In this document: one piece after another, positions 11,413-26,443 of the stretch | Numbering within the stretch: position 1 is the first letter of the stretch | How the letters are laid out: each line of letters begins with the position of its first letter | NCBI GenBank assembly: GCA_964354495.1 | Contig: CAYHAA010000004.1 | Location: forward strand, 90,001 to 122,000 | Source: an uncultured archaeon | GTDB taxonomy: Archaea; Asgardarchaeota; Thorarchaeia; Thorarchaeales; Thorarchaeaceae | Length of the DNA stretch: 32,000 bases | Reading direction: 5' to 3' | Notes under the pieces: model-generated | What the model was told of the DNA's origin: nothing | Database searches by the model: none | Seen by the model: the letters and a program-made list of their open reading frames with translations, nothing else | Position numbers and translations under genes: made by a program

Positions 11413-12594
11413 ATGGCAGAAGTTCTAACGAAACCATCAAGGCGAATAAGGAACATGGTAGCTAAGGAGCTACGCCTCATAGTGAAAGATAAGGTTGCCA
11501 TCCTCCTGATCTTCATGCTGCCAGCAGCTCTGATTGGAATGCTGTGGTATGTGACTGAATCTAGTTCCATGGGTGGTATGGACATTGGCGGCAGTAGTGG
11601 TGGTGGTTCATCTGGTGGTGATAACGAAACTGTCATAGAGAGTGACATCATATTGGGTATCATCGATCTAGACACAACGCGAACGTATGAGGGCGAAGAC
11701 CTCTCTGAAAACCTGACAGCATACATCAAGAATTTCGTCAAAGAGCTGATTATCTATAATAGTACAGCTGATGCTTACAGAGACCTCTATGAGAAGGCCA
11801 TTGATGGGTACATAGTGATACCTGATGGCTTTGAGGCCAACTTGACGGTCAACGAGCCAACATATATTGAATTGCACGTAGATTCAACTGATTTTCTGGG
11901 CTCTGCTACAATACAGGGCGTTGTCCAAGGAGCTACCATAATGTTCAGGGTCTCTAAACTCTGGATACGTTCCGAGATCTTTCCTGGGGTAGTCATCGAG
12001 TTCGCGCCGCAGGGAGGGTACTTGGAGGCTGTCTTTGGTGGATTCATAGTCATTTTCTCAAGCTACTTGGGAATCGCGATGACGGCTGCGCAGAGTATTG
12101 TCGGAGACACACCACTTCGAAGAATGCTCCTGACGCCTACGAGTAGGCTAGAGGTCGTATTCTCCAAAGTGATTGCCTATGTCATCATCGGATTTCTGCA
12201 ATCCCTCCTTCTTGTTACGCTCTGGGTGCTGGCATTCAACCTTAATCTAAACACGAATTTCTTCTCGCTTGTCATCATCATGAGCTTCAGCGCCCTGACG
12301 GGATCGGCCACGGGAATTCTGATCTCAGCTGTTGCCGGTACAAGGCTTCAGGCAAATCAGATGTTCTTGTTTGTCCTATTTGCCACACTGATATTGTCTG
12401 GATTCTTCATTGATGTCGGCGTGCTAGATAACATTCTTCCAATGAATCAAGGACTCAAGCTTCTGATTGACACAGCATTCAAGGGTTTGTCATTGCTTCA
12501 GGTACTAGATAAGATATTCATACTTCTCGCATTCTCAGTGGGTGCAATGCTCCTTGCAACCTTCATATTCGCCAGAAAACCAACTTTGGGATAG
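11413..12594 (+). CDS. ABC-2 type exporter permease with extracellular domain (GldF/YbhS-like)
   Basis: N-terminal KELRLIVKDK..ILLIFMLP TM; extracellular loop with YIVIPDGF and N-x-S/T sequons; five C-terminal TMs with RRMLLTP.SRLEVVFSK and ILSGFF...ILP motifs. Confidence 0.9.
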   Translation: MAEVLTKPSRRIRNMVAKELRLIVKDKVAILLIFMLPAALIGMLWYVTESSSMGGMDIGGSSGGGSSGGDNETVIESDIILGIIDLDTTRTYEGEDLSENLTAYIKNFVKELIIYNSTADAYRDLYEKAIDGYIVIPDGFEANLTVNEPTYIELHVDSTDFLGSATIQGVVQGATIMFRVSKLWIRSEIFPGVVIEFAPQGGYLEAVFGGFIVIFSSYLGIAMTAAQSIVGDTPLRRMLLTPTSRLEVVFSKVIAYVIIGFLQSLLLVTLWVLAFNLNLNTNFFSLVIIMSFSALTGSATGILISAVAGTRLQANQMFLFVLFATLILSGFFIDVGVLDNILPMNQGLKLLIDTAFKGLSLLQVLDKIFILLAFSVGAMLLATFIFARKPTLG

Positions 12595-12603
12595 GATAGA
12601 AAC

Positions 12604-25600: not shown

Positions 25601-26443
25601 GCATACTTTGACACAGACTATGATCTCCTATCAGACTATGATGAGATCTTTGTTCATAGGACAAATCCAAACTCCAATGACACAGATGGAGATGGGCTCA
25701 AAGACAATGAGGAAGTCATCACCTACAACTCTGACCCGAACTCAAGGGACGGAGATGAGGACGGGCTCACTGACTATTTCGAGATCTTCACGAGCCACAC
25801 GCAACCATGGGACAACGATACAGACGGTGAAGGGCTTAGCGATGGCGACGAATGGAATGTCTACCGGACTGACCCCCTGATGCCCGACACTGACTTTGAT
25901 GGATTGGACGACTATCAAGAGGTGACGGTCTACCACACAGACCCATTATCGGCTGACTCGGATGGCGACGGACTTCTCGATGGTTCAGACTTCATGCCGA
26001 CCATGCATTGGATATGGCCAATCGTCCTTGCCTTCGGAGGCCTCTTCGTACTGGCAGTCGGAGTCAAACGAATACGGGATAGGTACTTCGTGAAGGAGTA
26101 CGTCACTACCTCAGAACCTGCAAGCCTTGGCCTTGAGCCCGGAATGGATGTCGCCGTGGAGTACAAGATACGAGGAGGAAAGGTGATCTTTGGCGTGGTG
26201 ATACGGAACGGTTCGAAGGGTCCCATGCAGAACGTGCAGGTGATACTGGGTGTTCCTGACCTGACCGACGCCATCAAGACACAGACCATCGGTACAGTGG
26301 AGTCGGATACGGTCTCCGTGGTAGAGATTGGCTTTGAACTGCAGCCGGGTGCTGAGGGCGAGCTGGTTGGCATGGTAGAGTACGACAGTGTCGAGGGTGA
26401 ACATAGGATAGTGAACCTGAAGCCAGTCAGGATTGTAGCATAG
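19643..26443 (+). CDS. Giant single-pass cell-surface protein: FG-GAP/BBS2-like beta-propeller, Ca-binding TSP3-like repeat stalk, TM, cytosolic Ig/ear-like domain
   Basis: ATG 19643 overlaps the upstream TGA (ATGA) and follows GGAGG. Signal peptide MKIYHAIIAIMFVCVLAG; propeller blades D(F/L/I)D.DG..E(V/I)AVG; ~1700 aa of DxDxDGLxDxxE units; TM WIWPIVLAFGGLFVLAVGV then KRIRDR; ~100-aa beta-rich C-terminus. Confidence 0.9.
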   Translation: MKIYHAIIAIMFVCVLAGVSSQTLTIDPSQLPVNIQSPQGQYTLSEIAPFSTALVWSTTTGNQIVDIVVDNFDSDGKDEVAVISQNGTLSLFDDDGTLLWRLTLRATPYDIASLDGTVAASKEILVGTSSGILVVGANKFVQMNVTLPEPVHVVAATNLDSDALEEIAVGCDDFYIYAYNVNATLLWSHLSNGRIRLLTAVDIDADTREEVLAASDTKRFTLLQDTGAVIFNKTSTSAISAVRLGDLTTAGNLDAAIGFENGTISVVHADGTIAYTVNAAGSITALEVGDLMTGGRHELALGTSSSVLTIYDSSGGLLWNRTLGGAVNRVLFSNIGATTNAQVLVATNNMVTMYNSTGWRTLQTNIPGLTRVMTYGDLDGFGGQEFVIGTNSGAVSAYGRDFDKDGLADAREILIEGTLYDDSDTDDDGLNDGDEVLTYGTSPLLPDTDSDKISDFAEVVTYGTDPNSADSDNDKLTDWQEIYLGTDPNAADTDGDTLTDYEENNITLTLPTQADSDDDGTNDAQDDNDGDGLTNIQEVRQTKTDPNDVDSDHDGTTDYYDDQDGDDLANWKEIQLGTGVYDADTDDDLLLDGYEVKVSKTSPLSEDTDNDQLTDYEEVMIVHSDPLKADGDNDGLTDYEEYVTYGTLVDDPDSDNDLISDGDEVNIYHTDPLNPDSDGDLIDDGLEVNYWRSDPNAADTDLDGLDDYAECYTWHTNVTKSDTDGDTLGDGLEVLTYGTNATRVDTDLDGIKDPDEVKYLANGWSATNPHTFDAVILDGNWDFDGDRLTNYQEIYLTRTNPTLMDSGGLPLTDDLEDSDLDGLRNYDELFVTFSLPRNPDTDGDKVKDGDEWYLLHTDVNDPDSDDDSIGDYDEDFDGDKLSNGVELYITGTKFNVTDSDSDSISDYYDDEDDDQLPNWFEVMMIGTDPQYNDTNDNGVYDWEEDPDNDNLINLDELLHNCDPLAADTDSDGLTDAEEAFDTFTGPTNPDVDNDGILDGQDDQDHDGLTNIQEIRTYGTNCTNWDTDGDRIRDGLEIDLGLNATNADSDGDGLYDGWYDANGNGIYEPHLGERGEDVNVNGIVDPNETSPFEADTDQDGLDDAEEYFYGTSPLIADCDEDGLLDSAEVNDYFTDPWNSDSDFDGLSDFIEVNVTGTNPLNNMTYGVPDYDYDSDGDSLSNGDEIDIYDTDAGDADSDDDGINDGDEVLIYGSNPLSRDTDGDLLEDFDEILYGTNIMVRDTDGDQLDDYVEINLLGTNPLLASTYGNGTLDGQLDHDGDGLSNAIEIYGYHSNATSPDTDGDGLWDGFEVFTTGSSPTDKDSDDDGLSDFEEWTIWHTDLSGTDSDSDGLDDYTEVYVSLTSPTLWDSDGDQLSDGEEWNDYGTDPNNPDTDNDLITDKQELDLGTDPRLNDTDGDGLSDWEEWQIYGTDPTQADVDGDGLNDKEEIENGTDWENWDSDFDTISDGDEVNIYGTNPLDADTDHDNLADADELFNSHTLPDTNDTDGDGIPDDLDDQDADGISNFDEIYLYETNCTLIDTDGDLLSDYYEIFISETSPTKIDTDGDGLSDRDELFYWSSNPLSRDTDGDGLEDSEEALTWHTLLNDTDTDNDLLSDYDEIKVFETDPLQFDTDGDGLGDGAELNIHNTSPLRADTDGDGLFDNQEVNGIYMTFNISGVIESRWVYPNPRETDTDLDGLTDFQETNQTGTDPTLFSTQKNSVSDADWDIDDDMLTNYHEIVLTLTNPRLIDTDGDGKIDGMDDEDRDLLTNWEECVLTKTNPRNPDTNDNGVSDYNDDEDQDGLTNGEEINDYGTDPLKKDTDADRLTDFDEVDKYGTSPILKDTDGDLLDDGAEILDYRTSALLNDTDSDFLTDYEEVVLTNTNPLTNMTHPGVLDGDWDSDDDGLSNLDELRTYHTLPLDPDFDNDDLIDGLEVLLGTRIDNPDTDGDLLFDGAEYSLHGTSPLLNDTDNDRIGDYDEVMVYHTNGAYFDTDYDLLSDYDEIFVHRTNPNSNDTDGDGLKDNEEVITYNSDPNSRDGDEDGLTDYFEIFTSHTQPWDNDTDGEGLSDGDEWNVYRTDPLMPDTDFDGLDDYQEVTVYHTDPLSADSDGDGLLDGSDFMPTMHWIWPIVLAFGGLFVLAVGVKRIRDRYFVKEYVTTSEPASLGLEPGMDVAVEYKIRGGKVIFGVVIRNGSKGPMQNVQVILGVPDLTDAIKTQTIGTVESDTVSVVEIGFELQPGAEGELVGMVEYDSVEGEHRIVNLKPVRIVA
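20840..25990 (+). repeat. Degenerate coding tandem repeat, roughly 65-75 units of ~24 aa (DxDxDGLxDxxExxxxGTxPxxx)
   Basis: Read directly from the translation; the count is by eye. Units are divergent at the nucleotide level, with recurring longer variants carrying an extra 13-aa DxxxDxDxD segment. Confidence 0.9.

Follow-up and report, generated by a model that had tools for sequence, protein, structure and literature searches.

Among the closest described systems to the locus considered here are GldA-GldF-GldG of Bacteroidota and the generic ABC_transp_aux systems, in which the genes for an ATP-binding cassette (ABC) ATPase and an ABC-2-type permease lie together with one for a membrane-anchored protein that bears a large extracytoplasmic GIFT domain. 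The same combination occurs in a 32,000-nt window (the whole stretch of DNA analyzed; contig CAYHAA010000004.1, positions 90,001 to 122,000) of a 3.3-Mb metagenome-assembled genome (MAG) from a Thorarchaeota member of the Asgard archaea. Five open reading frames (ORFs) at positions 11413-26443 of this window encode, in order, a permease, a long ABC ATPase (NBD1, for nucleotide-binding domain), a protein joining an S8 subtilase domain to a GIFT domain (the S8-GIFT protein), a short ABC ATPase (NBD2), and a giant type I membrane protein. The operon is of a known kind, in which an ABC-2 transporter is accompanied by an auxiliary protein bearing a GIFT domain; new to it are a dead ectodomain resembling that of eukaryotic site-1 protease (S1P), two distinct ATPases, and lineage-specific giant partners. 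Its function appears to be undescribed, and our search for literature on Asgard archaea with GldG, GIFT, IFT52, S1P, or MBTPS1 found no linking paper, most subscription journals lying outside that search. From the sequences and predicted folds, we give an even chance to a reading in which the permease, the two ATPases, and the S8-GIFT protein would form a four-protein membrane unit whose ATP-driven action takes place at the cell surface, with the dead S1P-like protein as its outer subunit.

The original prediction had called the operon GldAFG-like; membership of the GldAFG family is something that we could not uphold. Against the GldA equivalog TIGR03522 (cut-off 402.6 bits), NBD1 and NBD2 scored only 108.4 and 132.1 bits, with the generic DrrA subfamily scoring higher, and the GldF and GldG NCBIfam models gave no match at E <= 0.01 to the permease and the S8-GIFT protein. 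Other features also set the window operon apart from GldAFG: its permease is an ABC2_membrane_3 protein whose outer loop spans 150 aa, its two ATPases differ from each other, NBD1 having an additional N-terminal domain, and the polypeptide that holds its GIFT domain also includes a dead subtilase, beta domains totaling ~500 aa, and a cytosolic tail that is conserved. Judged by sequence, the window proteins are not orthologues of GldA, GldF, or GldG, and the resemblance is architectural; an ATPase, an ABC-2 permease, and a membrane-anchored GIFT protein are encoded side by side in four of the five carrier families and in paralogous operons. In NosDFY (the ABC-2 pair NosFY with the periplasmic NosD) and FtsEX-type systems, ATP hydrolysis acts on an extracytoplasmic partner and not in solute transport. 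The partner proteins of these systems are not homologous to those described here, and we use them as an analogy for mechanism only.

A conserved four-gene core and its paralogous operon

The permease gene (11413..12594, + strand; 393 aa; Pfam ABC2_membrane_3, 101.1 bits, cut-off 31.6) ends 9 nt ahead of NBD1 (12604..14283, +; 559 aa; Pfam ABC_tran, 94.5 bits), which itself ends 4 nt ahead of the S8-GIFT gene (14288..18643, +; 1451 aa; Pfam Peptidase_S8, 130.6 bits). The latter starts at an ATG, which is also the start in database copies, while a TTG at 14258 is likewise open. Only 1 nt separates it from NBD2 (18645..19646, +; GTG start, 333 aa), a short DrrA-type ATPase (ABC_tran, 92.6 bits; drrA subfamily, 184 bits), which in turn shares a 4-nt ATGA overlap with the giant gene (19643..26443, +; ATG start, 2.27k aa; Pfam TSP3_bac, 230 bits in 13 stretches). 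The sequences GGAGGT and GGAGGA lie upstream of the NBD2 GTG and the giant start, respectively. These junctions were read directly, and they agree throughout with the five co-oriented genes and the spacings first proposed; Pfam likewise backs the initial domain calls for the permease, the ATPases, the subtilase, and the TSP3 repeats.

The five-gene arrangement is not a product of chance, because the same order recurs in 13 further loci of the taxonomic family (three of the same genus and ten from further genera, two of them cut by contig ends) and in a second family of the same taxonomic order, at 34-60% identity. To follow it further, we used a sample of 200 Asgard genomes from 27 families (coded f1, f2, and so on). 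The C-terminal half of the S8-GIFT protein was present in f1 (40/43 genomes), f2 (1/1), f7 (5/5), f12 (16/19), and f19 (6/6), and in none of the other 22 families. The N-terminal domain of NBD1 was found in the same five (42/43, 1/1, 5/5, 17/19, and 6/6, respectively), with a single weak match elsewhere in the sample. The S8-GIFT and ABC genes are adjacent in four of these five carrier families, in two gene orders. Family f12 keeps the order permease-NBD1-S8GIFT-NBD2 without the giant gene (4/4 fetched loci; 11/11 same-contig pairs), and in f19 (Jordarchaeia/Freyarchaeota, with Ca. Freyarchaeum deiterrae among its members) one strand encodes NBD1, the permease, and NBD2 in that order, the S8-GIFT gene being divergent (3/3 fetched loci; 5/5 same-contig pairs). 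Family f7 has kept the ABC trio as well as the S8-GIFT gene, though the two are unlinked.

The conserved unit is therefore four genes (permease, NBD1, S8-GIFT, and NBD2) and not the five proposed at the outset: synteny across classes, including after rearrangement, and matching phyletic patterns bear out the core, and the giant gene falls outside it. That adjacency survives a change of both order and strand argues for function and not for descent alone. It is quite unlikely, in our view, that the genes are functionally unrelated neighbors, such as a generic drug or lipid exporter lying beside surface proteins, with an order owed to common descent. All carriers are Asgard and could belong to a single clade or a small number of clades, and the genes are apart in f7, as such a reading would have it; it sits poorly with the rearranged but still adjacent genes of Jordarchaeia, with the same phyletic pattern of the NBD1 N-terminal domain and the S8-GIFT protein, and with the existence of a paralogous set of the same composition.

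This paralogous set emerged from a profile search, which recovered an Asgard-wide S8-GIFT superfamily of three groups with source names covering Thor-, Jord-, Ran-, and Odinarchaeia and Hodarchaeales. Group A (1365-1461 aa), the family of the window operon, is dead and encoded in the ABC-2 operon. Group B (1536-1777 aa) is also dead, with the catalytic His replaced by Arg, Ser, or another residue and Gly, Thr, or Ser at the position of the nucleophilic Ser, and lies in a paralogous ABC operon present in Hodarchaeales and other Asgard MAGs. In all four group B loci, the order is short NBD, permease A, permease B, long NBD, dead S8-GIFT, and a 70-aa protein with two transmembrane (TM) spans. The group B parts are paralogues of the window parts, with the NBD1 N-terminal domain present in three of the four loci and the S8-GIFT TM span and tail in all four. 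One Hodarchaeales operon (L038:2873-16926, +) comprises MarR, a short NBD, two permeases, a long NBD, a dead S8-GIFT protein (1536 aa), and a two-TM protein of 66 aa; where Thorarchaeia have the giant, it encodes a beta-helix/NosD-like protein of 1359 aa, a point of likeness to NosDFY.

Group C (1244-1336 aa) is active, with the full Asp-His-Asn-Ser set and GTSMATP-type motifs, and its genes mostly stand alone, one contig being too short to judge. In these proteins the GIFT domain starts about 150 aa after the S8 domain, as in S1P, and a zinc ribbon lies at the C-terminus. We considered and rejected the generalization that active S8-GIFT proteins are never ABC-linked: in f8 (L052:7285-12974, -), the gene for an active protein (1263 aa, with the zinc ribbon) lies directly downstream of genes for an FtsX-type permease (398 aa) and a 244-aa ABC ATPase, which recalls FtsEX-type systems. 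From its sequence, this is a second, independent S8-GIFT/ABC pairing, apparently of the type VII, mechanotransmission kind. In the loci sampled, it is ABC-2 linkage that is confined to the dead groups and not ABC partnership in general.

Within the core, hydropathy gives the permease six hydrophobic spans, with a ~150-aa extracytoplasmic loop between TM1 and TM2, and a cytoplasmic motif after TM2 (QSIVGDxPLRRMLLTP) is invariant in a 16-sequence alignment. A six-TM ABC-2 permease, which also matches PF01061, encoded with separate ATPases bearing canonical motifs is the composition of a type V (ABC-2) transporter. NBD1 and NBD2 have intact Walker A, LSGGQ, DEP, and H-loop motifs in every lineage examined and are apparently competent, and the proposal of a single permease gene with two different ATPases was supported. 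NBD2 is orthologous to the short ATPase of every variant operon. NBD1 has an extra N-terminal domain (residues 1-245, nt 12604-13338) ahead of its DrrA-type ATPase, within which Pfam recognizes a TrmB C-terminal-like repeat (Regulator_TrmB, 38.0 bits against a cut-off of 22.2; residues 39-117). A protein-atlas feature search with this domain returned no usable match, and a word-based homologue search returned Asgard proteins only, by a method that cannot show absence elsewhere.

Several genes recur near the core in families lacking the giant. In f12, NBD2 is followed in 3/3 loci by a co-oriented gene for a small GTPase of the Ras family (174 aa; L014:9648-10172, -; also L030 and L031), and a 1560-1670-aa dead S8-GIFT paralogue of the group B type lies convergent a few kb off (L014:2872-7560, +; also L030 and L031). 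In f7 and f19, the same convergent trio follows the S8-GIFT gene (L015:8123-12726, -; L034:9421-14394, -), encoding a 265-275-aa TPR/SNAP-like protein, a 124-140-aa protein (one weak longin-domain match), and a ~1030-1045-aa protein (weak MIT or SNAP-like matches). These sequence matches suggest a trafficking-flavored neighborhood of the S8-GIFT gene that is common to two classes.

The S8-GIFT protein and its likeness to site-1 protease

The S8-GIFT protein (all features on the + strand) begins with an N-terminal hydrophobic signal or anchor (hydropathy), followed by the subtilase domain (about 14771-15649; Peptidase_S8), ~500 aa of predicted beta domains, a GIFT domain (about 17210-18127; family profile and AlphaFold2 (AF2)) into which a disordered, Gly-rich stretch is inserted, a TM span (18347-18406, residues 1364-1383; hydropathy), and a 78-aa cytosolic tail (18407-18640) that is conserved, basic, and helical, with an Arg/Lys-rich stretch directly after the TM span. 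The GIFT call needed support beyond the window. For the window protein alone, IFT52_GIFT (24.5, cut-off 27.2) and ABC_transp_aux (16.3, cut-off 34.7) were both sub-threshold, and a single-sequence search of the PDB with the part after S8 gave only a weak IFT52 match (E 0.072). At the family level, a distant orthologue (L015) exceeded both Pfam cut-offs (ABC_transp_aux, 36.8 > 34.7; IFT52_GIFT, 35.4 > 27.2), and the family profile matched solved IFT52 structures (E 3.4e-12). On these sequence comparisons, the assignment proposed from the window sequence, below Pfam cut-offs there, is secure for the S8-GIFT family.

The subtilase domain had been read as a pseudo-protease, and wider sampling strengthens that reading. 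The oxyanion Asn is replaced by Asp in 15/15 orthologues and in all cluster representatives of the group, which were drawn from a search of 1.8 billion proteins and display the same catalytic pattern. At the nucleophile position, Thr, Ala, or Ser occurs within the genus and Ala in distant lineages (Ala in 6/15 orthologues); across the group the position holds Thr, Ala, Ser, or Phe, with Ala in most cluster representatives. Among the 15 orthologues, the catalytic Asp has become Ser or Gly in two lineages and the catalytic His has become Arg in one, while the window's genus retains both. As judged from these substitutions, the subtilase is catalytically dead family-wide and has long been so. We regard it as highly improbable that S8 is still a protease, for example with Thr as the nucleophile, performing S1P-like regulated cleavage of a membrane substrate. 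The retained Asp and His of the genus, the Thr or Ser of some members, and an architecture that is S1P's would suit such an enzyme; the prevalence of Ala at the nucleophile, the universal loss of the oxyanion Asn, and the lost Asp or His in several members would not, and the active relatives keep full GTSMATP-type motifs.

The description of the protein as S1P-like was borne out for both architecture and predicted fold. An AF2 model of residues 130-1329 (35 sequences, no templates; pLDDT 77.3, pTM 0.68) had S1P structures as its best Foldseek matches in the PDB (9csd_A, E 1.8e-20; 8uw8_A, E 3.3e-19; 8UW8 was released in 2024), both running from S8 into GIFT. Among Swiss-Prot models, four mammalian MBTPS1 entries ranked 1-4 and plant SBT6.1 ranked 6, these being the only fold matches there to cover both S8 and GIFT. 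A second aligner superposed 576 residues on 8uw8_A (rmsd 5.8 A, Z 37.9; model 24-1113 against S1P 190-874), compared with about 270 residues only for plain subtilisins. The S8 and GIFT domains are thus predicted to be packed together as in S1P, which comprises a prodomain, an S8 domain, a P-like subdomain, a GIFT subdomain (residues 617-998), and a TM span (PMC11231238). The plan common to the window protein and eukaryotic S1P (MBTPS1/SKI-1; plant SBT6.1; PDB 8UW8, 9CSD) is S8, one or more beta domains, GIFT, a single C-terminal TM span, and a basic cytosolic tail, giving the S8-GIFT protein the type I topology of S1P. The differences are also clear: unlike S1P, the window protein lacks the catalytic machinery, has ~500 aa of extra beta domains between S8 and GIFT, has an S8 domain nearer by sequence to archaeal Tk-SP, and is encoded with an ABC transporter.

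Membership of the S1P family itself was not supported for the window protein, in which catalysis is lost and to which the MBTPS1-specific Pfam models gave no match at E <= 0.01. The active Asgard relatives come closer, with MBTPS1_4th scoring 26.9 against a cut-off of 27 and the post-S8 profile of the group matching human S1P in its GIFT region, at residues 597-741 (E 3e-7). As a fold without proteolysis of external substrates, the S8-GIFT protein can also be compared to the pseudo-subtilases that serve as binders or receptors (PCSK9 and CspC of Clostridioides), and it gave weak partial NCBIfam matches to the CspC and CspBA pseudoprotease models, far below cut-off. Unlike the S8-GIFT protein, PCSK9 and CspC are soluble or secreted and are without GIFT, TM span, or ABC partners.

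The giant protein and flanking genes in Thorarchaeia

The giant protein (features again on the + strand) starts with a signal peptide at its N-terminus (hydropathy), followed by a beta-propeller (about 19784-20839; Pfam BBS2_Mid 38.2, PQQ_2 32.6), an array of TSP3-type calcium-binding repeats of about 1700 aa (20843-25984; 56 D.D.D.x.D motifs at about 23-aa spacing), a TM span (26000-26077; hydropathy), and a cytosolic Ig-like beta-sandwich tail of 121 aa (26078-26440). Among the 200 genomes, the giant TM span and tail occur only in f1 (40/43) and f2 (1/1). The tail is encoded 7.5-8.7 kb downstream of the S8-GIFT gene on the same strand in every genome with both on one contig, and the giant is adjacent to the operon in 33/33 same-contig cases, the window's genome included. 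The TPR gene further downstream (28478..29734, +; cytosolic by hydropathy, 418 aa, Pfam TPR families) is co-oriented with and directly after the giant gene in 8/14 Thorarchaeia loci, including the second family (tblastn), and the protein could be the sixth component of the operon in its Thorarchaeia form. The giant and TPR genes are a lineage-specific addition confined to two Thorarchaeia families.

This distribution bears on the idea, part of the original prediction, that the machine is dedicated to the giant, which fails: the core occurs without the giant in three of the five core-bearing families, and the paralogous operon has a different large protein or none. By analogy to type 1 secretion of RTX adhesins, the ABC system might secrete, anchor, or release the giant as a calcium-binding adhesin, which we think unlikely. 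The ATGA overlap with NBD2, recurring in at least six other genera, and a giant gene never found away from the operon in the same-contig cases would accord with it. Set against these are the families and paralogous operons that do without the giant, and a giant that, with a signal peptide at its N-terminus and a TM span near its C-terminus, has no need of ABC secretion. ABC-2 permeases are not, to our knowledge, known as protein exporters, and the protease that would release the giant is dead.

Long bacterial TSP3 calcium-binding repeat arrays are likewise found on the Myxococcus surface proteins CglD and MtsD. Against the CglD model NF033765 (NCBIfam), the giant scored 366.5 bits over 15 repeat stretches, under the cut-off of 400 and from its TSP3 repeats alone; CglD is not known to have the N-terminal propeller, TM span, and cytosolic Ig-like tail of the giant. 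That this tail is folded, as had been proposed, is supported by a confident AF2 model (pLDDT 85.6, seven strands). In fold searches, it matched the gamma-COP appendage (Z 11.1) and the gamma2-adaptin ear (Z 10.9), each over 112 residues, which puts them on a par with transglutaminase barrels (Z 11.3), PDIP38, and GH2 Ig domains; ApaG-type and glycosidase Ig domains were also level with the adaptin/coatomer appendages. Language-model feature scores for an adaptin/coatomer appendage (0.83-0.89) are at the level of a lead only. In f9, ~790-aa proteins with DDRGK, UFM1-ligase-like, PCI, and Vps28-like regions (L044:402-2768, -; L045:1719-4088, +) have a middle Ig-like segment (weak Alpha_adaptinC2 match) that resembles the giant tail at 24-29 bits.

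In the window's genus, two genes are inserted between the giant and TPR genes (26477-28324). One is a minus-strand ORF of 367 aa that is multi-TM, rich in sequons, and without a Pfam family, and the other encodes a membrane protein of the YhhN family. Both look like an insertion into a conserved neighborhood, because most other genera are without them at that position. On the other side of the operon, the divergent upstream neighbor of the permease encodes a 772-aa protein (7570..9888, -) with no Pfam family and no clear TM span, which is found upstream of the permease in 12/13 loci of the taxonomic family (tblastn, L017-L028). Between this gene and the operon (9916-11174) lie a fragment of an LRR protein (-; 208 aa) and a TnpB/Cas12f-like TNB-domain fragment (+; 200 aa), which are probably mobile-element remnants.

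Possible modes of action and their meaning

Type V (ABC-2) transporters are typically exporters, and with a permease matching PF01061 and DrrA-like ATPases, the main rival to a four-protein surface unit is an ordinary exporter whose cargo would be small or lipid-linked (such as a lipid, dolichol-linked glycan, or peptide), with the S8-GIFT protein as no more than the extracytoplasmic receiver or scaffold for that cargo. Such an exporter might serve glycosylation or cell-envelope assembly, including that of the neighboring sequon-bearing surface proteins. N-glycosylation sequons exceed expectation in the S8-GIFT ectodomain (14258-18643; 23 against about 12), the giant ectodomain (19610-26443; 32 against about 22), and the permease loop (4 against about 1), consistent with glycosylated surface exposure of all three. 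PMC11231238, citing Beatson and Ponting 2004, also places a GIFT domain in the OST48 subunit of oligosaccharyltransferase. The neighborhoods examined held no conserved glycosyltransferase, flippase, or lipid-synthesis gene, and simple export leaves unexplained why a dead protease fold has been retained under selection across classes. We consider this rival possible but doubtful; it differs from the surface unit mainly in what crosses the membrane, and overlaps with that reading rather than excluding it.

Several points weigh against the four-protein surface unit. One permease gene with two different ATPases is an unusual pairing. Mechanotransmission is documented for type VII transporters and NosDFY and not for the transporter family of the window. 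The S8-GIFT gene of f7 is not beside the ABC genes, the trio being at another locus, and the five carrier families may share one ancestor, in which case genome counts overstate the independence of the matching patterns. Finally, most active group C genes stand by themselves, the f13 locus and the Odinarchaeia loci examined having no neighboring ABC genes, so the fold alone does not imply an ABC partner.

Were the four proteins to work as a unit, the ABC-2 (type V) permease, probably a dimer, would be served by NBD1 and NBD2 as a heterodimer, and the S8-GIFT protein would be a membrane-anchored accessory subunit with its S1P-like ectodomain outside. We infer that ATP hydrolysis in the cytoplasm would be put to use at the outer face of the membrane, with one of two outcomes: mechanotransmission that moves the accessory ectodomain, as in NosDFY and FtsEX, or the hand-off of an exported molecule to it. 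The cleft of the dead subtilase may be a peptide- or protein-binding site. The helical tail of the S8-GIFT protein may contact the cytosolic side of the transporter, with the NBD1 N-terminal domain as a candidate contact because the two occur only together. In Thorarchaeia, the giant and the cytosolic TPR protein would be lineage-specific clients or partners added downstream, with translational coupling to NBD2.

A broader and rather improbable proposal is that the Asgard family of S1P-like S8 and GIFT membrane proteins is ancestral to the eukaryotic S1P architecture, and perhaps to other GIFT modules, with its dead branches acting as the outer subunit of an ATP-driven ABC machine that couples large surface proteins to folded cytosolic parts (the Ig ear-like tail, the TPR protein, and the NBD1 N-terminal domain). 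If true, this would be a prokaryotic transmembrane link from surface adhesion to cytosolic machinery.

Little is known experimentally of Asgard cell surfaces, and if the four proteins do work as a unit, they would represent a conserved Asgard surface machine made from a transporter and a pseudo-enzyme. In eukaryotes, S1P is the gatekeeper of SREBP and ATF6 signaling, and the presence of its domain plan in both active and dead Asgard relatives means that phylogeny can test where S1P, and the GIFT module that it has in common with IFT52 and OST48, came from. The split between active and dead forms, with ABC-2 linkage only in the dead forms sampled, offers a natural experiment in how a protease fold may be repurposed as a binding subunit.

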